From: Candidatus Aenigmatarchaeota archaeon
Lineage (GTDB): Archaea; Aenigmatarchaeota; Aenigmatarchaeia; CG10238-14; SpSt-28
Assembly: GCA_038997305.1 (NCBI GenBank)
Contig: JAWAZZ010000002.1
Coordinates: 8,217-72,216, forward strand
DNA length: 64,000 nucleotides
Direction of reading: 5' to 3'
Shown here one piece after another: positions 921-39,760 of this stretch; positions within the stretch are counted from its first letter, which is position 1, and each line of letters begins with the position of its first letter. Below the pieces are notes generated by a model. The model was not told the origin of the DNA. It ran no database searches and saw only the letters and a list, made by a program, of their open reading frames with translations. The position numbers and the translations under genes were made by a program.

Positions 921-2131
921 TAGACCAAATAATAATTAGTTCTTTCTTAGGTAGTATTGTTGGATTCTTTTCTGGATTAATACCTGCACTACATCAGAAT
1001 TTATTGATACCAATATTAATTCCAATACTTTCTTTTAACGAAATGTTTTTAATATCTTTTTTAATTTCTTTGGCAATTTCACAAAATTACGGAAATGCAA
1101 TTTCGAGCTATTATTTATCGTCTCCACCAGAAGAACTATCTTTATCAACACTACCTTCTCAAAGACTAGCAAAAGAAGGATTACTACTAGAAGCACTTAA
1201 AATATTTGTATTAGCCGCTTCAATTTCAATTCCTGTTAATGTATTGTTTGTATTTTTATTTCATTCTTATATCTCAAATCTGATAATTTCGCTAGAAAAA
1301 TATATTGGTTTAATACTTATCATCGCTATTTATACGCTTTTCTTTTTCGAAAAAGAAAAAGCAAAAAGTTTTCTAATATTCTTTCTTTCCGGAATAATAG
1401 GAATATATGCTTTTAACATCATAGAATTCAATAAAGCTGTTCTGGCTATTTTTAGTGGATTTTTTGCTTGCTCCCAAATAATTATAAACCTATTTCAAAA
1501 ACAAAATTTTTTAGAAAATCAAAAAGAAGATGTAAAAATTAAATTAAAGAAAAAAGAAATTCTAATAGGTATTTTTCTATCTATTTTTGTAGGAATATTT
1601 TCTGGATTGTTACCTTCTTTAGGTATAACTCAAATGTTGTTATTTTTTCAACCAATACTTAATGATAGATTATTCATATTTTCATCTTCTTCATCATTTT
1701 TTTCTAATGAAATATTTTCAACAACCTCTCTATATACTATTGAAAATCCAAGAAGCGGATTAAGTGTTTATTTAGAAAAGATTTTGGGAAATGTTGACTA
1801 TAAAACCTTTGTCATTATGATTTCTATATTTCTAATCTCATCCTTTTTTGCATCAATTCTGTTTCTTATTTTTTATAAAAATTTTCTATCTTTGTTCAAA
1901 AGAATAAATTTCAAAGTGCTAAACCTTTTAGTTCTATCTCTAATCATTTTCATTGTTTTCGTTTTTAGCGGATTTATAGGTCTATTGCTTCTTTTCATCT
2001 CAACCTCTTTGGGTTTAATTACAATACATATAAATGTTAACAGAAGCTATTTAATGGGAAGCTTGATAATATCAACTGTTCTCATTTATACAAACTACTA
2101 TTTAAAGGTTCTTATATTCTTGGGTATATAA
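917..2131 (+). CDS. Polytopic membrane protein, TctA/DUF112-like (duplicated G-x3-G-L-x-P motifs)
   Basis: At least 10 predicted TM segments. The motif GSIVGFFSGLIPAL recurs as GIFSGLLPSLGITQ, as in tripartite tricarboxylate transporter TctA-family permeases. Confidence 0.4.
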   Translation: MIDQIIISSFLGSIVGFFSGLIPALHQNLLIPILIPILSFNEMFLISFLISLAISQNYGNAISSYYLSSPPEELSLSTLPSQRLAKEGLLLEALKIFVLAASISIPVNVLFVFLFHSYISNLIISLEKYIGLILIIAIYTLFFFEKEKAKSFLIFFLSGIIGIYAFNIIEFNKAVLAIFSGFFACSQIIINLFQKQNFLENQKEDVKIKLKKKEILIGIFLSIFVGIFSGLLPSLGITQMLLFFQPILNDRLFIFSSSSSFFSNEIFSTTSLYTIENPRSGLSVYLEKILGNVDYKTFVIMISIFLISSFFASILFLIFYKNFLSLFKRINFKVLNLLVLSLIIFIVFVFSGFIGLLLLFISTSLGLITIHINVNRSYLMGSLIISTVLIYTNYYLKVLIFLGI

Positions 2132-2169
2132 AAGTATAAATATAAGTAGTAGTTTGTATAAATAATATA

Positions 2170-2871
2170 ATGCATAGACATCATCACGATCACTCAAATC
2201 TATTATCAGAAAAGGAAAAGAAAGAAATAAAGGAAATTCTAAACAAAAAATTAGTAAATAAGGTTAGCTTAGTTGTGCTTCTTGATTATAAAAACAGTGA
2301 AGAGGCTTCAGAAATAACAGAAGCTTTATTGAAAGAAATCTCCAAGCTAAACGAAAACTTAGAAATAGAATTTGTAGACGCTTATTCTAATGAAGGAAAA
2401 GAGCTATTAGAAAAATATAATCTAGTTTTTGACAAAAATCAATTAGGACCAATAATATTTTTCAAATCAAAACCAAATATAGTTTTCTTGGGATTTCCTT
2501 TAGGTATGGAATTTCCAGTATTTTTAGATACATTAGAAATTATATCCAAAAATGAAGTTGCTATTAACAATAACGTAGCTAAAAACATAGCAAAAGTAAA
2601 TTCAAATCTAGATGTGTTTGTCTTTGTTACAGCAACTTGCCCATATTGTCCCTTAATGACACACCCATCAACAAAATTTGCTTTCCTAAACGATAAAATA
2701 AGAAGTATTATAGTAATGAGCGAAATGTTTTCAGACCTAGCACAAAAACATTATGTATATGCTGTACCAAAAACAGTAATAATGAAAAACTCAAAAATTG
2801 TAGAAGAGATTGAAGGCGCGATACCAGAAGCTGCATTTGCAGAAAAAATAAAAGAAAGTAGCGAAAACTAA
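2170..2871 (+). CDS. Thioredoxin-fold protein disulfide oxidoreductase (glutaredoxin-like, CPYC active site)
   Basis: Contains ATCPYCP in a C-terminal thioredoxin-like unit and a His-rich N-terminus (MHRHHHDHS). Architecture resembles archaeal PDO proteins. Confidence 0.6.
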   Translation: MHRHHHDHSNLLSEKEKKEIKEILNKKLVNKVSLVVLLDYKNSEEASEITEALLKEISKLNENLEIEFVDAYSNEGKELLEKYNLVFDKNQLGPIIFFKSKPNIVFLGFPLGMEFPVFLDTLEIISKNEVAINNNVAKNIAKVNSNLDVFVFVTATCPYCPLMTHPSTKFAFLNDKIRSIIVMSEMFSDLAQKHYVYAVPKTVIMKNSKIVEEIEGAIPEAAFAEKIKESSEN

Positions 2872-3191
2872 ATTAATCCCAGCTCTTTTTTCACTTCTTC
2901 ACTAGCCATATCCAAGCTCCAAACTTTATCAAAATCTATTTCAACTTCGCTCTCATATCCAATTTCTTTCAATTTTTCTTCTATCATTTCAACAAGTAGC
3001 GGTAAATATGGACAAAATGGTGTAGTTGGAATCATTTTTATAAAAACTTTTTTATCTTCTATTTTTATTTCCTCTATCAAACCCAAAGATACTATATCAA
3101 AATTTATTTCTGGATCTACAACTTCTTTCAATTTTTCTAATATCTTTTTCTCTTCATTCCCATATTCCATACTTAATGTATTTAAACGCAT
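2868..3191 (-). CDS. DUF59/MIP18-family Fe-S cluster assembly protein (SufT/PaaD-like)
   Basis: Typical DUF59 pattern with VVDPEINFDIVSLGLI and the conserved Cys in TTPFCPY. Length 107 aa. Confidence 0.65.
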   Translation of the reverse strand: MRLNTLSMEYGNEEKKILEKLKEVVDPEINFDIVSLGLIEEIKIEDKKVFIKMIPTTPFCPYLPLLVEMIEEKLKEIGYESEVEIDFDKVWSLDMASEEVKKELGLI

Positions 3192-4125
3192 TATATGCAG
3201 CTATAGAACCTTGAGCTGCGGCAGTTACTATTTGTTTAAATCCAGCACAAGCATTAGTAACATCTCCAGCAGCAAACACACCTTTAATATTAGTTCTCAT
3301 ACCTTCATCAACAATTATTTCCCCCCTTTCATTAGTTTGAACTCCAATCTTTTTGGCTAATTCCGAATTTGGATCTAACCCAATAGCAACAAACAATCCA
3401 TCTAACTTTAAAGTCAAAGTATTTCCAGTTTTAACATCTTCTAAAACAACTTCTTCAACCTTCTTATTACCTCTTATTTCCTTGACAATCTTATTAGTTA
3501 AAATCTCTATTTTTGGATTCTGTTTTGCAGAATTTACTAAAACAGCCTCTGCTCTAAATTCATCTCTTCTATGTATTATATAAACTTTTTTTGCATGTTG
3601 AGCTAAAACTAGCGCATCATGAAATGCAGAATTTCCACCACCAACAACACCAACAACTTTATCCTTAAAGAATAACGCATCGCATTCAGCACAATAACTT
3701 ACTCCATTCAAATTTTCTCCAGGAACACCTAATTTTCTCCTCTTAGAACCTGTTGCAAATATTATTACTTTACCTTTTATTTCGTAACCCCCCAAAGTTT
3801 TAACAACAAAAATTTCATTTTCTTTTTTTACATCAATAACTTCATCTATTAATGTTTTTGCTCCAAACATTTCTGCATGCTCCTTAAATCTTAAACCTAA
3901 TTCAGAACCTTTAATAGAATAAATAGCAGGATAATCTTCAACTATAGAAGCTTCATTCATCATTCCACCAATATCTTTTGTTATAACTAATGTTTTTAAT
4001 CCATATCTAGCAGAATACAAAGCGGCTGAATATCCAGCAGCCCCTCCACCAATTATTATAACATCTACTTCTTTCTCTATTTCTTTCTCTTCTTCCACAT
4101 GCTTTGTAACCAACATTATCTGCAT
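3154..4125 (-). CDS. trxB: Thioredoxin-disulfide reductase
   Basis: FAD motif VIIIGGGAAGYSAALY, redox-active CAEC dithiol, NADPH motif VVGGGNSA and C-terminal FAAGDV motif. Confidence 0.85.
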   Translation of the reverse strand: MQIMLVTKHVEEEKEIEKEVDVIIIGGGAAGYSAALYSARYGLKTLVITKDIGGMMNEASIVEDYPAIYSIKGSELGLRFKEHAEMFGAKTLIDEVIDVKKENEIFVVKTLGGYEIKGKVIIFATGSKRRKLGVPGENLNGVSYCAECDALFFKDKVVGVVGGGNSAFHDALVLAQHAKKVYIIHRRDEFRAEAVLVNSAKQNPKIEILTNKIVKEIRGNKKVEEVVLEDVKTGNTLTLKLDGLFVAIGLDPNSELAKKIGVQTNERGEIIVDEGMRTNIKGVFAAGDVTNACAGFKQIVTAAAQGSIAAYNAFKYIKYGIWE

Positions 4126-4151
4126 AATAATATCTTTTCAATAATTATTTT

Positions 4152-4955
4152 ATGAGTATAGAAGATTTAGAAAAACAGTTAGAAGAGTTAGAAATAAAAA
4201 CAGAAGAGCAGAAAAAGCAATTAAAGGAAATTGTTCTACCAAAAGTTATAAATTATGCAAAAAAACTTATAAACGAATATGGAAATCTAATAAAATCTGT
4301 AAGCATTTTTGGTTCAGCAGCTAAAGGAAAAATGAAAGCAACTAGCGATATAGATGTTTGGGTAATAATAGATGATACCTCTTTAAAGACTTCAGAAGAT
4401 ATCGAAAACGCATCGCTAAAAATAAGAATATTGGGAGAAGAATTTGGTTTACATGTTCAAGTTACCAAAATTACAGATTTTTGGAACTTAATAGCGAAAG
4501 GTAGTCCAGAATTGGTTAATTTCTTAAGATATAGCTTAATAATCTACGATTCCGGTTTTTTAAGACCATCACAAAGAATGCTAAATTTAGGATTAATAAT
4601 GCCTAGTGAAGAAGCAATAGAATTAAAAAAAAGAGCAGCTTTAATAAGGTTTGAAAAAATAAAAGAAGATTTAAAAAGTTTGATCTTCGAACTAAGATAT
4701 TGCGTTACTGATATACTTCAATCTTACATTATGAAAAAATACCAAAAAATTCCCGATCCTAAAACTATTCCAGAATTTTTAGAAAAAATGATAGAAGAAA
4801 AAATAATAGAAAGTGATTATCTAAACGATTATCTAGAGATAAATTCCCTATGGAAAAAAATAGAACACAAGGAAATAAAAGAAATAGACGCTTCTCATAT
4901 AGATAAAGCTTTAAAAATAACTCAAAAATTCATAGAAAAATTTTCTAAATTATGA
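4152..4955 (+). CDS. Pol-beta superfamily nucleotidyltransferase fused to a C-terminal helical HEPN-like domain (paralog 1)
   Basis: NTase signature VSIFGSAAKGKMKATSDIDVWVIIDD, with a third acidic residue in ITDFW. The C-terminal helical domain ends in WKKIEHKEIKEI, an HEPN-like x4-H-x2-E motif whose Arg is replaced by Trp. Overlaps the next gene by 4 nt. Confidence 0.55.
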   Translation: MSIEDLEKQLEELEIKTEEQKKQLKEIVLPKVINYAKKLINEYGNLIKSVSIFGSAAKGKMKATSDIDVWVIIDDTSLKTSEDIENASLKIRILGEEFGLHVQVTKITDFWNLIAKGSPELVNFLRYSLIIYDSGFLRPSQRMLNLGLIMPSEEAIELKKRAALIRFEKIKEDLKSLIFELRYCVTDILQSYIMKKYQKIPDPKTIPEFLEKMIEEKIIESDYLNDYLEINSLWKKIEHKEIKEIDASHIDKALKITQKFIEKFSKL

Positions 4956-6187
4956 CGCTAACAAGAGAAGCCAGAATAGAAATAGCCAGAAAGTTTGGAA
5001 AATTAGCAAAGGAGAAATTTAAAGATTTAGTTAAAAGTGTTGTTGTTTTTGGATCTACAGTAACTGGAGAATTTACAGAAAGAAGCGATATAGACATTTT
5101 AGTAATAGTAGACGATACTATAGTAAAATATTGTGAAAAAGATTTAGAGCATGTAATAGATGTAGAGGATAAAATAAAAACTTGTCCAAGATGTAATGGT
5201 GAGCTAAAAATAGGAATCTTAGATAGTTATCTGAACGAAATAGATAAAGAACTTGAAAAAATTGCAATTTCTATAGAAGAAGCAAGAGTAAAAATAAAAG
5301 ATAAAATTACTGGAGAGGAAAAAATAGTTAACTTAATTTCTTTGCAACCATCTTATAAACTTACAGAGTTTTGGGATTATGTGAGAAACGGAAATCCTAT
5401 AGTATACAATTTCATAAAAAATGGTTTAGCAGTAATAGACGATGGAACATTTAGAACATTTAGATATCTATGGCTTAGTGGAAGAATTCCTAAGACGAGA
5501 GAAGCAATAGAAAAATACATTGAAGATGCACCTAAAAAAATCTTAAGAGCAAAATCTGTAAAATTTTTACAAATTGCCGAAGATTGTTATTATGCTATTG
5601 TAAATTCTGCGCAAGCTGTTTTAATGTTTTTAGATAAAGCACCGCCCTCACCTTCAAAACTTTACGAAGAATTTAAAAGGGAATTAGTAGATAAAAATCT
5701 TATCGAACCAGAATATGCCGAATGGATTAAAGAAATTGTAGAATTAAGAAAGAAAATAGAACATCAAGAGATAAAAGAAATAAAGGGAGAAGAAGTTGAC
5801 TTATGGATAGAAAGAGCTCAAAAATTTGTGGAAAAAATGATATTGTTGCTTAGCATACTAGAAATAAGAAAAATAGAAAGTATTGCTATAAGAACAAGAG
5901 AAGTTTCTAGAGAATTAATGAGAAGAGCTCTGAAAGCTCTAAACATACCTTTTGACGAAAATAATCTTTTAGAAGTATTTAAAGAGAGCTTTATAAAGAA
6001 AGGATACATTTCTAGCATGTATTTAAATGTTTTGAATAGGATAGAAGAAATTCATTCACTAATCTTGGAGGGAAAAATTAACAAAATCGATTTTGATGAA
6101 GTTTATAAGCTAAGAGAAGATGTTAGATTAATGATAAGAGATGTAGGAAAAGTTTTAGAAGAATTGCAAAAAGAAAATAAAACTTAA
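4952..6187 (+). CDS. Pol-beta superfamily nucleotidyltransferase fused to an HEPN-like helical domain, with a Cys-rich insertion and extra C-terminal region (paralog 2)
   Basis: NTase signature VVVFGSTVTGEFTERSDIDILVIVDD, LTEFWDYVRNGNP and an intact HEPN-type R-x4-H motif (ELRKKIEHQEIKEI). Carries an insertion with YCEKD...KTCPRCNG (three Cys). The whole architecture is collinear with the upstream paralog. Confidence 0.55.
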   Translation: MTLTREARIEIARKFGKLAKEKFKDLVKSVVVFGSTVTGEFTERSDIDILVIVDDTIVKYCEKDLEHVIDVEDKIKTCPRCNGELKIGILDSYLNEIDKELEKIAISIEEARVKIKDKITGEEKIVNLISLQPSYKLTEFWDYVRNGNPIVYNFIKNGLAVIDDGTFRTFRYLWLSGRIPKTREAIEKYIEDAPKKILRAKSVKFLQIAEDCYYAIVNSAQAVLMFLDKAPPSPSKLYEEFKRELVDKNLIEPEYAEWIKEIVELRKKIEHQEIKEIKGEEVDLWIERAQKFVEKMILLLSILEIRKIESIAIRTREVSRELMRRALKALNIPFDENNLLEVFKESFIKKGYISSMYLNVLNRIEEIHSLILEGKINKIDFDEVYKLREDVRLMIRDVGKVLEELQKENKT

Positions 6188-6205
6188 ATTTATTATATAA
6201 TAGAT

Positions 6206-6463
6206 ATGGAAGGTGTAATAGTAAACTTCAGATTAAGTAATCATAACAAAAACTGGAATCAAGTAATAGTAGAAGTAGAAGGAATAAATAGTAGAGAAGA
6301 AGCTAAAAAACTTTTAGGAAAAAAAGTTATTCTAGAAATTAATGGCAAAAGAAAAATAGGAAAAGTTATTAGATTGCATGGAAATAAAGGAAGAGTATTA
6401 GTAAGGTTTAGAAAAGGATTAAATGGTTTAGCTCTAATGAAAAAAGTAATAATAGAGGATTAG
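6206..6463 (+). CDS. rpl35ae: 50S ribosomal protein L35Ae
   Basis: GVIVNFRLSNHNKNWNQVIVEVEGINSREEAKKLLGKKV matches the L35Ae consensus (VNFRRG..TQ..NQ.I..IEGV.S.EEA..YLGK.V). Confidence 0.8.
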   Translation: MEGVIVNFRLSNHNKNWNQVIVEVEGINSREEAKKLLGKKVILEINGKRKIGKVIRLHGNKGRVLVRFRKGLNGLALMKKVIIED

Positions 6464-6639
6464 TTATATCTTACAAATCCTAACCTCTTTGCTTCTTCTC
6501 TAAAACATTTTCTGCATAACAATAATCCATACTTTCTTATTACTCCTCTGGTTGTGTTGCACTTCCTACATCTATAGTTTTCTTTTCCACAAGCCCTTTT
6601 CTTTTTCGGTTGAAAACTTGTTCTTAATGCTGGATCCAT
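6460..6639 (-). CDS. rps14: 30S ribosomal protein S14 type Z (uS14, zinc-binding)
   Basis: Hand-translated 59-aa ORF missing from the track because it is under 60 aa: MDPALRTSFQPKKKRACGKENYRCRKCNTTRGVIRKYGLLLCRKCFREEAKRLGFVRYN. It has the CxxC...CxxC zinc motif and the CRKCFRE signature. Confidence 0.8.
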   Translation of the reverse strand: MDPALRTSFQPKKKRACGKENYRCRKCNTTRGVIRKYGLLLCRKCFREEAKRLGFVRYN

Positions 6640-6642
6640 AAT

Positions 6643-6858
6643 TTAATAAGCGATAAGACCAAATATTTTTAAAGCATCTTCTTCATCTATAAAGCCTTTT
6701 TCTATTGCTATACTTATTACATTTGGTAAGTTTTTTGTTATTATATCATAAACTTTTGTGCCTTCGTTTCTTATTTTAAGCATTAAGAAAGCATTTACCA
6801 TTCCTGCTATTTCCTCTTTTATTATTTCTTCTTCAAAGAACATAAATATATTCAACAA
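6643..6858 (-). CDS. Hypothetical 71-aa protein sitting inside the spc-type ribosomal operon between L5 and S14
   Basis: Tightly packed ORF, 3 nt after the S14 start and 18 nt before the L5 stop, on the same strand. No recognisable family. Confidence 0.3.
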   Translation of the reverse strand: MLNIFMFFEEEIIKEEIAGMVNAFLMLKIRNEGTKVYDIITKNLPNVISIAIEKGFIDEEDALKIFGLIAY

Positions 6859-6876
6859 AAAAATTTAAATATTCAA

Positions 6877-7386
6877 TTAAACAACTTCAACTCCAAAATA
6901 TTCTTTAACAAACTTTATTGCCTCTTCTTTTGTAACTCTTTGTTTTCTTGAAATTGTTCCATCTTTTAATCTATAGCCAGGTCTTCTTAAAGAAAAACAA
7001 ACATCCATACCTAATAAACCTATAGTATGATCATATTTATAACCTAAATCTATGTATTTTGCAATACCTAAACTAAAATTTCCATAATCATCAAAAACTC
7101 TCGAAGGAATTTTATAGTTATATGCCTTAAAAACTTTTTTCGCAAACTCTTCTGCTTCCTTACCTCTCAATGTAATCATAACTCCTATTGGTCTTCCTTT
7201 TGGAACACCAAAAGTAGATCTTTTAACAGAATAAGTTATTGCTGGTTTTCTATTGTTAAACATATTTTGCAACAATTTCTTTGCTCTTTCTATCTTTTCT
7301 AAATCTCCACCACAACCTATATTTATCACTACCTTTTCCAGAAATATTTTCTTTCTCATAGGATTTTCTAATTTTTTAGGATTCAT
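6877..7386 (-). CDS. rpl5: 50S ribosomal protein L5 (uL5)
   Basis: MNPKKLENPMRKKIFLEKVVINIGCGG...FGVPKGRPIGVMITLRG is typical of archaeal uL5. Confidence 0.9.
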   Translation of the reverse strand: MNPKKLENPMRKKIFLEKVVINIGCGGDLEKIERAKKLLQNMFNNRKPAITYSVKRSTFGVPKGRPIGVMITLRGKEAEEFAKKVFKAYNYKIPSRVFDDYGNFSLGIAKYIDLGYKYDHTIGLLGMDVCFSLRRPGYRLKDGTISRKQRVTKEEAIKFVKEYFGVEVV

Positions 7387-10405: not shown

Positions 10406-11587
10406 TTATTTTAAATAGTCGAAAATAGATTTTTTCTCTCTTTTAATTCCTTTTTTATAAAATTCTTCAAAATTATCTCTTATGGGTTTATAAACTTTAT
10501 CAAAAAACCTTTGTTGATCCTCCAAATCTTTTATGTCAAAAGTTTTTAAGTATTCTAAAACAAAACTCCAAATATTTTGAAAGTTGTCTATCCTTTCAAA
10601 CTTTCTTGCTATATTTATGTCAAAATCTTTAGGTAATTGTGGTTTGTCTCCCATTATAAAGAATCCAGATTTAGTATCTATAGGTGCTTTTTCATTTCCA
10701 ACTATTTCCCACTTTCTTTCACTCTCTGATTTAATTTCAAAATCTTTTTCTAAATCTTTTAACAAATAACTTTTGCCTTTAAATGAATATTGTGGTCCAT
10801 AATGTTTAGCCCAAGCATAAAAGATTGCTCTATTCAACCCAAAAGATTTAGCTTTTTCTAAATCTCCTTTTAAAAGATAATATCTCGCAGCCTGAAGCAA
10901 CGCCATAACTTCAAATCTTCCAATTTTTCTCGAAATAATCTTTTCTTCTTTTTTCAAATCTTTCAAATCCAAAAAATTCTTGACAAAATCTTCAAAATAT
11001 TCTAAATCGTATTTTATATTACTAGAATACAAAATCGATGTTTGTTTTGGCTCTTTTTTATTATTTATTGTTCCAATAACTCTTATTATTCTTGCTTCAT
11101 CTTTTACTACTTTATCAACATTATATTCATCGAAATTTTGTATAAAAAAGTTCAACAATCCTTGTTGTAATAATTTCCATTTTTCGATTTCTACAAGTTT
11201 ATTCACTTTATAATAAACATGTATTCCATTACCAGAATTTGCAATTAACGATGGTGGAATATTAAAGGAAAACAGCTTATCATAAATCTTCCTATAATCT
11301 TCTATTGCTTTTTCACTATCCAAATCTATTACAAAAACATTTCCAAATTTTACTGCTTCTCTACTTCCAATTTTTTCTACTCTAGGAAGTAAACCTATAT
11401 AGCAATCTTTATCTTTTAGTTTCTCTAAATTTTTCTTAAAGAATGAAAGCACATCTATTTTTCTTTCGAAAAACTCTTGAAGATAAATATTATTTTGATG
11501 TAAAACTCTTAACTCCCAATAAATTTTTTCACCTTCATATCCGCTACACAAAAAGTTAAGAAATTCTTCTATAATCGAAATGTTCAT
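10406..11587 (-). CDS. priS: Archaeo-eukaryotic primase catalytic subunit PriS (compact form, possibly a PriS-PriL-type fusion)
   Basis: AEP motifs VFVIDLD (DxD) and SGNGIHVYY (SG.G.H), plus an N-terminal FY-containing helical region. No separate PriL gene in the window. The C-terminal roughly 150 aa are helical and could be a PriL-like module, as in Nanoarchaeota-type fused primases. Confidence 0.6.
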   Translation of the reverse strand: MNISIIEEFLNFLCSGYEGEKIYWELRVLHQNNIYLQEFFERKIDVLSFFKKNLEKLKDKDCYIGLLPRVEKIGSREAVKFGNVFVIDLDSEKAIEDYRKIYDKLFSFNIPPSLIANSGNGIHVYYKVNKLVEIEKWKLLQQGLLNFFIQNFDEYNVDKVVKDEARIIRVIGTINNKKEPKQTSILYSSNIKYDLEYFEDFVKNFLDLKDLKKEEKIISRKIGRFEVMALLQAARYYLLKGDLEKAKSFGLNRAIFYAWAKHYGPQYSFKGKSYLLKDLEKDFEIKSESERKWEIVGNEKAPIDTKSGFFIMGDKPQLPKDFDINIARKFERIDNFQNIWSFVLEYLKTFDIKDLEDQQRFFDKVYKPIRDNFEEFYKKGIKREKKSIFDYLK

Positions 11588-11616: not shown

Positions 11617-12714
11617 ATGACTGTAAAACCTCTAACAGAGAATCAGAAAGATTTGTATAATGCATTAAATAATGAAAGAATTACATACTTAGCTATTTTT
11701 GGTCCTAGTGGAAGCGGAAAAACATATTTTGTTATAGATTATGCATTAAGAGTTCTAAAAAATTCTAAAACAAAAAAATTAATACTCATTAAGCCCTTTA
11801 TAGATCCTGCAACTAAAAGAGAATTCACAATAGCAGAACTAGGAAATCTATATTTTGAAAACGCAAAACAATATTTAAAAGATATTATCGACTCTTTGAA
11901 AGAAGATTGGAACGAAGTAGAAAAATTGATAAACGAAAAAAGAATAATAATTTCTGATTTTTCTTCGCTTTCTGGAAGAAGTTTTGATGATGCAATTGTT
12001 TTTGTTGATGATGTTCAACTAGTAAAGCCAGAGAGAATTATAGAAATCATAATGAGAATAGGAAGCAACTCTCGACTAATAATAGCAGGTGATCCTTTTC
12101 TTCAAGCAGAATATCATAATACAATAAAAATATTAAGAGAGGTTCTCTCAAATCAATCTAATTCATACATTGTTGAATTAGGCTTGAAAGATATTGTAAG
12201 AGAAGGTGCAAAATTGGGATTAAAATTAATGTTAGAAACAAAGTTAAGAAGAAGGGAAATGAGTAAAGAAGAGAAAGAAATATTAAACTTAATACTTGAA
12301 GAAGTGGATAACATAGAAATAATCAATATTTTGGATTTAAGACCTCTAAAAGAGGAAATAGGAATAACATCTAAAACTGTTCCAGACGCTGTTATAATAG
12401 TTAAAGAGGGTCAAGCTGGCAAAATAGTTGGTAAAGGTGGTAAAACAATTCAGTCTTTAGAAGAAAAACTTAACATGAGTATAAGAGTTTTAGAGTTATC
12501 AACAGATTTAAGAGAATATTTCAGAGTTTTTCATCCAGCTGGCAAATTAGCAAAAGAGTTAAAAGATGTAGAAATAAAAGGTCCTTATTTGTATCTTTAT
12601 GTAACAAAAGAACAAAGACCAATAGTTTTAGGAACTAAAGGTGTAAACATTAGATTTTTTGAAGCTTGTCTAAAACAGCTAATGAATGTTGAAGTCAAAG
12701 TAATTTCACAATAA
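11617..12714 (+). CDS. P-loop NTPase (PhoH-like) with a C-terminal KH RNA-binding domain
   Basis: Walker A FGPSGSGKTYF, Walker B IVFVDDVQL, and a KH-type GxxG loop in IVGKGGKTIQSLEEKLNMSIRVLE. Confidence 0.5.
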   Translation: MTVKPLTENQKDLYNALNNERITYLAIFGPSGSGKTYFVIDYALRVLKNSKTKKLILIKPFIDPATKREFTIAELGNLYFENAKQYLKDIIDSLKEDWNEVEKLINEKRIIISDFSSLSGRSFDDAIVFVDDVQLVKPERIIEIIMRIGSNSRLIIAGDPFLQAEYHNTIKILREVLSNQSNSYIVELGLKDIVREGAKLGLKLMLETKLRRREMSKEEKEILNLILEEVDNIEIINILDLRPLKEEIGITSKTVPDAVIIVKEGQAGKIVGKGGKTIQSLEEKLNMSIRVLELSTDLREYFRVFHPAGKLAKELKDVEIKGPYLYLYVTKEQRPIVLGTKGVNIRFFEACLKQLMNVEVKVISQ

Positions 12715-15506: not shown

Positions 15507-16160
15507 ATGAATAGCATAGAAAAAATTTACGTTAAAGATTTTTATGATGTCGCTGCAGATAGCTGGATAAATATTAGACAAAAATTTAAAGTTTTAGAAA
15601 AATTTAAACATATACAAAACAAAAAAATACTTGAAGTTGGTTGCGGAACAGCTACTCAATTACTTGAATTTAAAGAAAACTTTCTTGTTGGTATTGATAT
15701 ATCAAAGAAAATGATTAAATATGCTATTGAAAACGCAAAAAAGAAAAACGTTAAAATATATTTCGTATTAGCAGATGCTAGAAAATTACCATTTAAAGAA
15801 AAAACTTTTGATTTTGTATTAAGCATCGCTACAATACATCACATCTATAGAAGAAAAGATCGAATTAAAGCTCTAATAGAAATGGTAAGAGTTTGTAAAG
15901 ATTCCTGTTTTATTTCAGTTTTGAAAAGATATTCAACTCTAACATTTAAAAAACTCTTTATAGATTTTTTCAGATTCTTTTCATTTGGAAATATATTCTT
16001 AGAATGGAAGTATAGAGGAAAGAAATTGAAAAGATTTTATCATACATATTCACTAAGAGAATTAAAGAGTGATTTGAAAATTGTCGAGAAATTTTTTAAG
16101 ATATCTTATGAAATTTCTCAAGACAAACTAAACTTCTTTGTACTAATAAAAAAATATTAG
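15507..16160 (+). CDS. Class I SAM-dependent methyltransferase
   Basis: Motif I ILEVGCGTATQ, and acidic motif II and post-II residues VLADARKLPF. Confidence 0.6.
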   Translation: MNSIEKIYVKDFYDVAADSWINIRQKFKVLEKFKHIQNKKILEVGCGTATQLLEFKENFLVGIDISKKMIKYAIENAKKKNVKIYFVLADARKLPFKEKTFDFVLSIATIHHIYRRKDRIKALIEMVRVCKDSCFISVLKRYSTLTFKKLFIDFFRFFSFGNIFLEWKYRGKKLKRFYHTYSLRELKSDLKIVEKFFKISYEISQDKLNFFVLIKKY

Positions 16161-16261
16161 CCCCGCCCGGATTCGAACCGGGGTCTCCGGGTTTCTTTCA
16201 TCCTTTATCAAAGCTTTGGATGCCCAAAGCCCGGCATCCTTGGCCACTAGACGACGGGGCT
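16158..16261 (-). tRNA. tRNA-Gln (anticodon TTG) with an anticodon-loop intron of about 31 nt
   Basis: Reverse complement has an AGCCCCG/CGGGGCT acceptor stem with the A1:U72 pair typical of archaeal tRNA-Gln, TTCGAAT T-loop, anticodon stem CCGGG/CCCGG and loop CUUUGG. A roughly 31-nt insert (GCATCCAAAGCTTTGATAAAGGATGAAAGAA) sits at the canonical 37/38 position. Confidence 0.75.
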
Positions 16262-35415: not shown

Positions 35416-35505
35416 CGCCCCGGCCGGGATTCGAACCCGGGTCTGCGGCGTTCTGTTGGATTAACATTGACAGGCCGCCATCCTAGACCACTAGACGACC
35501 GGGGC
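35416..35505 (-). tRNA. tRNA-Asp (anticodon GTC) with an intron of about 17 nt at a non-canonical position near 38/39
   Basis: Reverse complement has a GCCCCGG/CCGGGGC acceptor stem, anticodon stem GCGGC/GCCGC and loop CTGTCAA, a 17-nt insert TGTTAATCCAACAGAAC before the 3' half of the stem, TTCGAAT T-loop and discriminator G. Confidence 0.65.
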
Positions 35506-35960: not shown

Positions 35961-36089
35961 TTGTGGGTGGCGACGCACTCCCTTTCCCGCCACATGCGTG
36001 GCAGTACTCGGGAGTACGCTGGCCGGTTTCACTTCCGTGTTCGGTATGGGTACGGGTGGTTCCCGGCCGCTTTGGTCGCCACCCACAAT
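35961..36089 (-). rRNA. rrf: 5S ribosomal RNA (standalone)
   Basis: GC-rich 129-nt island in AT-rich DNA. The reverse complement carries the universal 5S core ...CCCATACCGAACACGGAAGTGAAAC...GAGTACTGCCAC..., which matches E. coli 5S CCCATGCCGAACTCAGAAGTGAAAC. The terminal helix I is TTGTGGGTGGCGAC/GTCGCCACCCACAA. Confidence 0.85.
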
Positions 36090-39288: not shown

Positions 39289-39640
39289 CTAAAAAATCAA
39301 AGAAAAAATTATTACAAAAATTATACTGCTCTTATCAATAAGGACAACGTTTATTGAAGAACCTTTTTGTAAAGCCAGAAAGTATAAAATCCAGGGAGCA
39401 GTTCCTGCTAATCCGCTTAGAATTATAAACAAGACTTCTTTATTAATTAGTTCTTTAACTAGGGCACCTTTATTTAAGATTAAAACTAAAGAAACGGCAA
39501 AAAATCATTATTATTATAGATCTTAAAGCTGTTGCAAGAATGGAATCTACTTTTTGCAAGCCAATTTTTGATAATATAGTCGCTAAAGCAGCAAATATAG
39601 CACTTCCTAAGGCAAGAACAAACTTTTGATTTAATATTTT
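39289..39640 (-). pseudogene. EamA/DMT-like small transporter remnant: no canonical start codon, and a frameshift within an A6/T6 homopolymer (39499-39504)
   Basis: Hand translation of the minus strand gives an EamA-like N-half (...VLALGSAIFAALATILSKIGLQKVDSILATALRSIIIMIF) ending at a stop. A -1 shift in the T6 run restores a continuous C-half (...LVLILNKGALVKELINKEVLFIILSGLAGTAPWILYFLALQKGSSINVVLID...). No in-frame ATG/GTG/TTG near the 5' end, which abuts tRNA-Ala. Confidence 0.45.
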
Positions 39641-39712
39641 TGGACCGGGCGGGATTTGAACCCGCGGCCTCCTGCTTGCGAAGCAGGCGCTCTTCCGCTG
39701 AGCTACCGGCCC
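39641..39712 (-). tRNA. tRNA-Ala (anticodon CGC)
   Basis: Near-identical to the tRNA-Ala at 430-501 (same acceptor, D and T arms, G3:U70). It differs only in the anticodon arm (CCTGC TTCGCAA GCAGG), with compensatory stem changes. Confidence 0.85.
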
Positions 39713-39760
39713 ATGCTATAATTTATTTCTTTTTTCATTTATCAAAAGTGTTAAAATCTT

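Follow-up and report, generated by a model that had tools for sequence, protein, structure and literature searches.

A tandem pair of nucleotidyltransferase and HEPN-like fusion paralogs is a vertically inherited core gene pair of Aenigmatarchaeota

The window analyzed here, a stretch of 64,000 nucleotides from an Aenigmatarchaeota genome, contains two adjacent open reading frames on the forward strand. The first, gene A (4152..4955, +), encodes a 267-aa fusion of a nucleotidyltransferase (NTase) and a HEPN-like domain with the motif W-x4-H, and the second, gene B (4952..6187, +), encodes a 411-aa NTase-HEPN-HEPN-like fusion with the motif R-x4-H; both present Pfam matches. The stop codon of A and the start codon of B overlap by 4 nt (ATGA, 4952..4955, +), so that the two genes would be translationally coupled. 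BLASTP aligned the two proteins as collinear paralogs with 31% identity (E=7e-28), and this collinearity is interrupted by a B-specific insert of ~60 aa in the NTase domain and by a C-terminus that is ~115 residues longer in B. The overlap, the collinearity of the tandem paralogs and the lack of an effector near the pair had all been described in the original prediction, and our analysis supports each of them; no effector is conserved beside A and B in related loci. Upstream, an A+T-rich divergent spacer of 26 nt (4126..4151) separates gene A from a thioredoxin reductase (TrxR) gene on the minus strand. Downstream, the gene of ribosomal protein L35Ae (6206..6463, +; PF01247; E=3.5e-14) starts 18 nt past B and is possibly co-transcribed with A and B. 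In 12 related loci, with identities as low as ~40%, L35Ae likewise immediately follows B. The genes flanking the pair in the window encode TrxR, an FeS-assembly protein, L35Ae, L5, S4e and EF-1alpha, and no RNA family was detected by Rfam inside 4152-6187.

Both proteins possess a Pol-beta-type NTase core, as predicted from the motifs. A and B score 32.9 and 36.4 bits against PF01909 (NTP_transf_2) and 32.1 and 41.2 bits against PF18765 (Polbeta), where the Pfam gathering thresholds are 26.9 and 21, respectively. The NTase domain of A (4263..4556, +) contains G54-S55 (4311-4316), D66-I-D68 (4347-4355), DDT (4371-4379) and (D/E)109-F-W. The NTase domain of B (4952..5476, +), whose motif columns are invariant, contains G34-S35 (5051-5056), D46-I-D48 (5087-5095), DDT and E139-F-W-D (5366-5377). 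The signature GSx10DxD is present in 121/121 members of the A family and of the B family alike, and GS, DxD and D74 are unchanged in all 121 A members. The NTase domain of B further contains an insertion (5123..5209, +) that was initially described as Cys-rich (C...CPRC). We confirmed its presence (C61-x5-H67 ... C78-P-R-C81) and redefine it as a clade-specific Zn-ribbon, found in 21 of the 121 members: it takes the form CxxC...CxxC in relatives at 60-65% identity, and the clade of the window shows a modified first knuckle.

The remainder of each protein is helical. In the predicted HEPN domain of A (4599..4952, +), W234-KKIE-H239 (4851-4868) is located where predicted helix 221-238 ends, and in the first HEPN domain of B (5489..5851, +), R266-KKIE-H271 (5747-5764) is located where predicted helix 253-270 ends. 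The Trp that replaces Arg in the first paralog, opposite the canonical R-x4-H of the second, had been pointed out before. Since this Trp is fixed across the A family (W234, K235 and H239 are each found in 121/121 members), it does not represent a local substitution. In the B family, R266 is equally invariant (121/121), and H271 and E273 (position H+2) are each present in 119/121 members. The mean column identity of the family alignments is 57% for A (alignment A1) and 59% for B (alignment A2). The HEPN regions of A and B match each other with a probability of 98% (hhalign), and many B homologs carry the JGI label UPF0332. PF05168 was matched by 33 of 59 A members (best E 9e-5) and by B of the window (E=0.03; residues 209-295), and PF01934 (HepT-like) by 19 of 61 B members (best E 7e-5), with every match of either family below its gathering threshold. 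In the AF2 models of both proteins (pLDDT 89 for A and 88 for B), the R/W-x4-H motif, with R in B only, occupies the end of helix 3, the position that the HEPN fold requires (PMC3710099). The top structural matches of these models are KNTase, AAD(9), AadA, LinB, HalB and GlnE (Foldseek), with low TM-scores of 0.3-0.6. These proteins are two-domain transferases that are oligomeric in action. The C-terminal domains of KNTase, LinB and AadA have been classed as HEPN (PMC3710099). The recurrent sub-threshold Pfam matches, the helix-3 position of the motif and the structural matches suggest that the helical domains of A and B are probably HEPN domains.

The additional C-terminal residues of B (5849..6184, +) had been noted as well, although their number was estimated at ~130 instead of ~115. 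This extension is all-helical in the AF2 model and aligns to the first HEPN domain of B (probability 95%; E=2.5e-8; 76 columns; hhalign), and it represents a degenerate second HEPN-like repeat in which the catalytic motif is not conserved. When PDB sequences were searched with A and B, the NTase motif was matched and nothing further; matches of the B extension to haemagglutinin HA2 in this search were discarded as coiled-coil noise.

We further analyzed the phylogenetic distribution of the pair, a check that had been proposed with the original prediction. Gene A lies directly upstream of gene B on the same strand in 73 of the 80 species-representative loci of Aenigmatarchaeota, across the phylum, and the pair is essentially single-copy (80 loci from 78 assemblies); intergenic distances were taken from a first-start ORF caller and are unreliable as exact gaps. 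B was found without an adjacent A at L028, L043, L050, L067, L071 and L001-L003, which indicates that the pairing is not absolute. Both genes are under strong purifying selection, at the level of ribosomal protein L5, with dN/dS values of 0.032 (A) and 0.036 (B) relative to 0.027 for L5, 0.073 for L35Ae and 0.097 for TrxR. The divergence of A and that of B are correlated (r=0.90; 67 loci), and both proteins vary in identity from locus to locus in step with L35Ae and L5. No relatives of the pair were found in the collections of viral contigs, phages and plasmids that we searched. A and B are thus a vertically inherited, slowly evolving, single-copy core gene pair of Aenigmatarchaeota that resides in housekeeping contexts. 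This inheritance, similar to that of core housekeeping genes, suggests a domesticated module with a probably important function rather than a defence system.

Two conserved genes, Y and X, precede the pair in most relatives, and the gene order Y->X->A->B is recurrent (X in 59/84 loci). X belongs to the xylose-isomerase/EndoIV-type TIM-barrel superfamily, with a PF01261 match in just 5 of 23 members, and neither X nor Y matched PDB, NCBIfam or PADLOC entries. A further TIM-barrel gene, c6, is found downstream of B; its matches, none of which reached the cut-off, are to sugar-phosphate epimerases, CbiR and Nfo. The c6 gene is often near a cobalamin adenosyltransferase gene, and its linkage to B may therefore represent plain synteny inside one subclade. 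No homolog of X, Y or c6 was detected in the 64-kb window by tblastn and six-frame hmmsearch.

The named homologs of the family come from Aenigmatarchaeota, Woesearchaeota, Nanoarchaeota/Nanoarchaeia and one 'DPANN group' MAG. The relatives in Woesearchaeota and Nanoarchaeota are encoded by a single gene, also in housekeeping contexts, and consist of a degenerate NTase followed by a presumably active NTase and by a HEPN domain with RKD[IL]EH. In rare Rosetta-stone fusions (P0256, P0300, P0331 and P0345), a B-like module is joined to an A-like module within a single chain, where the second module presents W/Y-x4-H and has lost the NTase motif. Makarova, Wolf and Koonin (2019) defined a DPANN-specific cluster, cls.004259 (prototype NEQ050), as an 'MNT fused to HEPN' in a house-keeping context (PMC6393860). 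Compared by description, the A/B family fits this cluster: both are MNT-HEPN fusions, restricted to DPANN and widely conserved there, in housekeeping contexts and not in islands. In contrast, the published description is that of one gene (PMC6393860), whereas we observed a tandem pair with a fixed R-versus-W difference, and the second HEPN repeat and the linkage to Y and X are absent from that description. The sequence of NEQ050 is not in the supplement of PMC6393860, and literature matches to 'neq050' were journal DOIs.

The original prediction offered a cis-acting toxin-antitoxin (TA) or defence-like module as one reading of the pair, and our results argue against it. The pair would then be a fixed chromosomal, self-neutralising type VII-like TA system, namely a duplicated, fused FhepTA-like module in which the HEPN domain of B is an RNase toxin, silenced in cis or in trans by NTase nucleotidylation or blocked dimerisation and freed under stress or infection. 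A/B share their domains with type VII HepT/MntA and FhepTA: they combine a GSx10DxD NTase with an Rx4H HEPN in a single chain, with MNT N-terminal and HEPN C-terminal as in FhepTA, and the Arg and His that B retains are what a toxin would keep. The NTase-domain models PDC-S09 and PDC-M05A of PADLOC match the pair (a literature search for PDC-M70 found nothing), and the DPANN cluster was described as 'most probably' a TA module (PMC6393860). However, type VII HepT/MntA AMPylates the Tyr of R(phi)xxxHxY (PMC13000451), and this acceptor is missing here: Glu occupies position H+2 in 119/121 B members, and Ile, Val or Glu does so in the A family. Moreover, FhepTA and HepT/MntA are located on prophages and islands (PMC13000451). 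Instead of the patchy, mobile-element-linked distribution of type VII systems, the pair is phylum-wide, single-copy, vertically inherited and strongly constrained (dN/dS 0.03), it occurs in housekeeping contexts, and searches of viral, phage and plasmid records did not detect it. It also differs by its two paralogs and its extra HEPN-like repeat. We therefore consider a TA function unlikely.

The other proposal, a nucleotide or oligonucleotide signal synthase comparable to Hailong HalB or to CBASS, in which A or B would be the sensor, appears very improbable. HalB, an oligodeoxyadenylate synthase, shares the fold of an NTase with a helical domain and was matched by Foldseek (9dbj and 9dbh; E ~3e-5), but the NCBIfam HalB matches are weak (15.2 bits for A of the window and 20.8 bits for a B homolog of a related locus; cut-off 190). 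A and B have no HalA channel partner and do not form a defence operon: in related loci, the neighborhood of the pair contains neither a conserved HalA-like transmembrane protein nor a conserved effector of another kind, and the pair has the distribution of a core gene. A heterodimeric KNTase/GlnE-like NTase that modifies a small molecule or a protein, with HEPN only binding the substrate or the nucleotide, is better placed, yet we still view it as rather unlikely. The closest structures are aminoglycoside and lincosamide nucleotidyltransferases and GlnE; ANT(4'), AAD(9), AadA and LinB share the two-domain architecture of an NTase with a HEPN-superfamily helical domain. An NTase-fused HEPN is usually a substrate-binding domain in small-molecule or protein nucleotidylation, for which RNA is not needed, and such a route of domestication has been described for fused MNT-HEPN proteins (PMC3710099). 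The recurrent order Y->X->A->B is also in line with this reading, as the pair might share a pathway with the TIM-barrel protein X and with Y in most Aenigmatarchaeota, but X and Y are missing from the window. Rx4H is normally lost in fused substrate-binding HEPN domains (PMC3710099), and yet R is found in 121/121 and H in 119/121 members of B. Sequence similarity to these resistance enzymes is confined to the NTase motif, and they are themselves dimers without Rx4H, encoded by bacterial resistance genes. The NCBIfam models of ANT(4'), ANT(9) and ANT(3'') gave 12-33 bits against cut-offs of 193-560, which indicates fold-level similarity only. Finally, A and B could be a divergent pair of tRNA 3'-end NTases, adding CCA or splitting CC- and A-addition. 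There are two paralogous NTases, the tRNA genes of the window do not encode CCA, so that a CCA-adding activity is needed, and a canonical cca gene was not found within the window; the window is only a fraction of the genome, however, and the gene may lie elsewhere. A and B lack the head-neck-body-tail architecture of these enzymes, and TIGR03671 (cca_archaeal) reached 17.5 bits against a cut-off of 281.3, at the NTase motif only (residues 17-79). Placement in a characterised housekeeping NTase family such as this one had been named as what would refute the original prediction, and it was not observed; a CCA-adding role is the most improbable of all in our estimation.

We consider it probable that A and B constitute a domesticated, non-defence and obligately paired enzyme. 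With moderate confidence, we interpret the pair as representing, in Aenigmatarchaeota, a vertically inherited, 'domesticated' MNT-HEPN family that extends across DPANN, and as acting in the form of an asymmetric, RNA-directed hetero-oligomer. Helical domains of two subunits pair in KNTase-type enzymes and HEPN RNases, each completing the active site of the partner. We propose that A and B are produced jointly and form an asymmetric hetero-oligomer in which, by analogy, their helical domains would pair likewise and each would complete the active site of the other. Both NTase sites look catalytically competent, and B alone would supply the full Arg-His HEPN dyad because Trp is fixed at the Arg position in A. 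RNA is the most probable target of this activity: a metal-independent HEPN site, for cleavage or RNA binding, could be coupled to template-independent 3' nucleotidyl transfer, in a role in RNA processing, repair or quality control. From these features we infer that a heteromer forms, that either site is active, that RNA is the substrate and that the pair has a housekeeping role, and RNA cleavage followed by tailing is a tentative, somewhat doubtful proposal for the specific mechanism. It is more speculative, and in our view unlikely, that A/B and the single-chain DPANN equivalents form an essential, lineage-defining RNA-processing or RNA-repair enzyme derived from a domesticated TA module. In that case, a specific cellular RNA would be cleaved at the asymmetric HEPN site, which combines an Arg-His dyad with a Trp-His half-site, and the product would be re-tailed or marked by the attached NTases. 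In most Aenigmatarchaeota, the enzyme would work with Y and with the co-transcribed EndoIV-like X, the latter in a role of 2',3'-cyclic-phosphate or 3'-end healing.

The family was already named as a priority 'dark matter' target. The degenerate second HEPN repeat of B, the clade-specific Zn-ribbon and the upstream Y and X genes of most relatives are new here. The heteromer hypothesis, the diagnostic R266/H271 versus W234/H239, the natural fused variants and the candidate partners X and Y provide handles on this family. TA-type parts that act as a core gene of genome-reduced DPANN, under a constraint similar to that of ribosomal proteins and with an RNase-type motif retained, would constitute a clear case of domestication from TA to housekeeping. 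Automated tools flag MNT-HEPN modules, considered the most abundant TA type, as defence genes, and PADLOC indeed assigned A and B to such models. Defence censuses in DPANN may therefore be inflated by the A/B family.

In the window, an archaeal segment with a GC-content of about 28%, the two genes occupy positions 4152–4955 (A, 267 aa) and 4952–6187 (B, 411 aa) of the forward strand and share an ATGA at 4952–4955. The proteins are collinear (31% identity, E = 7e-28; BLASTP), and B carries an insert of ~60 aa in its nucleotidyltransferase (NTase) domain and ~115 additional C-terminal residues. Both exceed the Pfam gathering thresholds for NTP_transf_2 and Polbeta. The ORFs, their overlap, their collinearity and every motif listed for them confirm the tandem paralogous NTase-HEPN pair of the original prediction. 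Their closest relatives are encoded by Candidatus Aenigmatarchaeota MAGs (P0001 and P0121; 94% and 93% identity to the two proteins), and one related locus, L005, is syntenic with the window. The pair is flanked by genes for thioredoxin reductase (TrxR), an FeS-assembly protein, a thioredoxin-like protein, L35Ae (18 nt 3' of B, same strand), L5, S4e and EF-1alpha. Elsewhere in the window, a 393-aa ORF (10406–11587, reverse strand) without Pfam match at E ≤ 0.001 adjoins a PhoH-KH fusion gene (11617–12714), and a 5S rRNA gene (35965–36083, reverse strand; Rfam, 79 bits) lies apart from any 16S/23S operon.

We analyzed motif conservation in alignments of 120 homologs per protein. The NTase motif GSx10DxD is invariant in both families. 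In the B family, R266 and H271 were found in 121/121 and 119/121 members, respectively, and the motif RKKIEH is nearly invariant. In the A family, W234, K235 and H239 are each present in all 121 members, and the Trp at the Arg position is therefore a fixed family character and not decay. AF2 models were confident for each domain (mean pLDDT of 88 and 89), with uncertain inter-domain geometry (pTM 0.54–0.60). In both models, R/W-x4-H spans the junction where a helix ends and the following loop begins, with an inserted helix ahead of it, which is the motif position of the HEPN fold (PMC3710099). The helical domain is HEPN-like, as had been proposed. PF05168 and PF01934 (HepT-like) matched 33/59 A members and 19/61 B members, respectively, all below threshold, and B homologs are labelled "UPF0332" by JGI. 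The top PDB matches of Foldseek were KNTase/ANT(4'), AAD(9), AadA, LinB, GlnE, Hailong HalB and MNT/HepT complexes (E ~1e-5, with low TM-scores); KNTase and LinB have C-terminal domains classed in the HEPN superfamily (PMC3710099). Two features noted in B stand but take on a different meaning. Aligned by hhalign with the HEPN domain of B itself, the C-terminal extension proves to be a degenerate second HEPN-like repeat (probability 95%, E = 2.5e-8). The Cys-rich insertion is a Zn-ribbon present in only 21/121 members, reading CxxC...CxxC in relatives at 60–65% identity and C-x5-H...CPRC in the clade of the window.

We scanned GTDB species representatives by pattern and obtained 80 loci in 78 assemblies, nearly all labelled Aenigmatarchaeota. 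An A-type gene lies immediately upstream of a B-type gene on the same strand in 73 of them. Across loci, A and B identities follow those of the neighboring ribosomal proteins L35Ae and L5, and the pairwise identities of A are correlated with those of B (r = 0.90; 67 loci). Relative to the closest genome, A and B have dN/dS ratios of 0.032 and 0.036, respectively (L5, 0.027; L35Ae, 0.073; TrxR, 0.097). Searches of IMG/VR viral contigs, GenBank phages and PLSDB plasmids yielded no relatives. Together with the flanking genes, these results point to a core, vertically inherited gene pair, whose signature is unlike that of a toxin-antitoxin (TA) or defence module. The TA, defence or signalling role first suggested is not supported by this core-gene distribution, strong constraint and lack of mobile-element relatives. 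A lone B-type protein (383 aa, RKKIEH; L001:4811–5962, also L002 and L003) occurs without an A gene on contigs labelled Thermoprotei/Desulfurococcales by NCBI, beside genes (393 and 798 aa) without Pfam match; this could reflect mis-binning, horizontal transfer or an unrecognised element.

The B profile, used in an exhaustive HMMER search, retrieved 449 cluster representatives at E ≤ 1e-10, of which 192 reached E ≤ 1e-30, with named members from Woesearchaeota, Nanoarchaeota/Nanoarchaeia and one "DPANN group" MAG. The Woesearchaeota-type proteins (600–670 aa; several thousand similar database matches) are encoded by single genes in ordinary contexts (e.g., ThrRS, FeoAB, eIF-2B) and begin with a degenerate NTase-like domain that lacks GS/DxD, followed by a complete NTase, then by a HEPN domain with RKD[IL]EHG and the helical extension. 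Three others (P0349, P0358 and P0380; 1,100–1,340 aa) carry N-terminal TPR arrays before the NTase-HEPN module. Four proteins (P0256, P0300, P0331 and P0345) combine a B-like and an A-like module in one chain, the second with W/Y-x4-H and a lost NTase motif. These fusions provide Rosetta-stone evidence that A and B may interact physically, and two unequal NTase(-HEPN) modules apparently acting together are a recurrent theme.

The family agrees in each tested respect with the description, the sole basis of comparison, of the DPANN-specific cluster cls.004259 (NEQ050), a priority "dark matter" target (Makarova, Wolf & Koonin 2019; PMC6393860). A/B is probably a lineage-specific two-gene variant of this recognised, uncharacterised DPANN housekeeping MNT-HEPN family. 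NTase-fused HEPN domains typically lose Rx4-6H (PMC3710099); B is an exception and A conforms only partly. The defining features of type VII systems (HepT/MntA and fused FhepTA) are GSx10DxD, R(phi)xxxHxY, whose Tyr is the oligo-AMPylation acceptor, and residence on prophages or islands (PMC13000451). Type VII membership was rejected on two of these features: A/B genes are not mobile, and the Tyr at H+2 is replaced by Glu in 119/121 B members and by Ile/Val/Glu in A.

We consider A/B to be probably a domesticated, non-defence, obligately paired enzyme. A and B would be co-translated and assemble into an asymmetric heteromer with two predicted competent NTase sites, one full HEPN Arg-His dyad (B) being paired with a Trp-His half-site (A). 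Its substrate would most probably be RNA, which it would cleave or bind in a step coupled to 3' nucleotidyl transfer; the specifics of cleavage plus tailing are proposed tentatively. A fixed, self-neutralising TA is rather unlikely, and we give the same modest weight to a KNTase/GlnE-like nucleotidyltransferase of a small molecule or protein, in line with KNTase and GlnE among the Foldseek matches. A Hailong-like signal synthase is very improbable: Hailong requires a HalA channel adjoining HalB, and no conserved HalA channel lies beside A/B.

A tRNA 3'-end enzyme appears slightly less probable still. The tRNA genes of the window do not encode CCA, and the window contains neither a canonical cca gene nor any other ORF with an NTase motif. 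Both tRNA-Ala genes (430–501 and 39640–39713, reverse strand) end in ...GGTCC-A followed by AAAA, so their 3' CCA is not part of the gene and has to be supplied by a CCA-adding activity. However, the archaeal CCA-adding enzyme model scored 17.5 bits against A/B (cut-off, 281), which argues against a characterised housekeeping NTase of the tRNA nucleotidyltransferase kind, the outcome named as contrary to the original prediction. Two Rfam tRNAs not reported by ARAGORN (16158–16261, 104 nt; 35416–35505, 90 nt; both reverse strand) probably contain introns.

Outside the window's clade, most Aenigmatarchaeota loci (most of L009–L084) present a same-strand array Y-X-A-B, exemplified by L004:1496–7143 (Y, 1496–3283; X, 3277–5100; A, 5153–5995; B, 6001–7143). 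Neither X nor Y was found in the window or in the A/B neighborhood of its clade. Y (~590 aa; 63% mean column identity among eight sequences) had no match in Pfam, PDB, NCBIfam or PADLOC. X (~605 aa; 59/84 loci) is a TIM barrel of diverged xylose-isomerase/EndoIV type that carries a large insert and has many invariant His/Asp/Glu residues. Speculatively, if X were an EndoIV-like 3'-end phosphodiesterase, Y-X-A-B would form a coherent set in which HEPN cuts, leaving a 2',3'-cyclic phosphate, X heals and the NTase tails. A distinct AP_endonuc_2 TIM-barrel gene (265 aa) lies 1–34 nt after B, or after the ORF that stands in for B, in the same orientation at L029:5174–5971 and in 12 other loci (L020, L042, L044, L051, L055, L057, L060, L067, L068, L072, L075 and L079). 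Its matches to sugar-phosphate epimerases, CbiR and Nfo all fall below the cut-offs. Its linkage to B may be cobamide-related synteny, since a gene for a PduO-type cobalamin adenosyltransferase frequently lies close by. Its weak PADLOC match is to PDC-M70B, and the NTase region of B weakly matches PDC-M70A.

The PADLOC models PDC-S09 and PDC-M05A also match the NTase domains of A and B (E from 1e-6 to 5e-11), and DPANN have been described as enriched in "multiple PDCs" (PMC12988326). These matches suggest that automated defence censuses could list this core family of DPANN among candidate defence systems.
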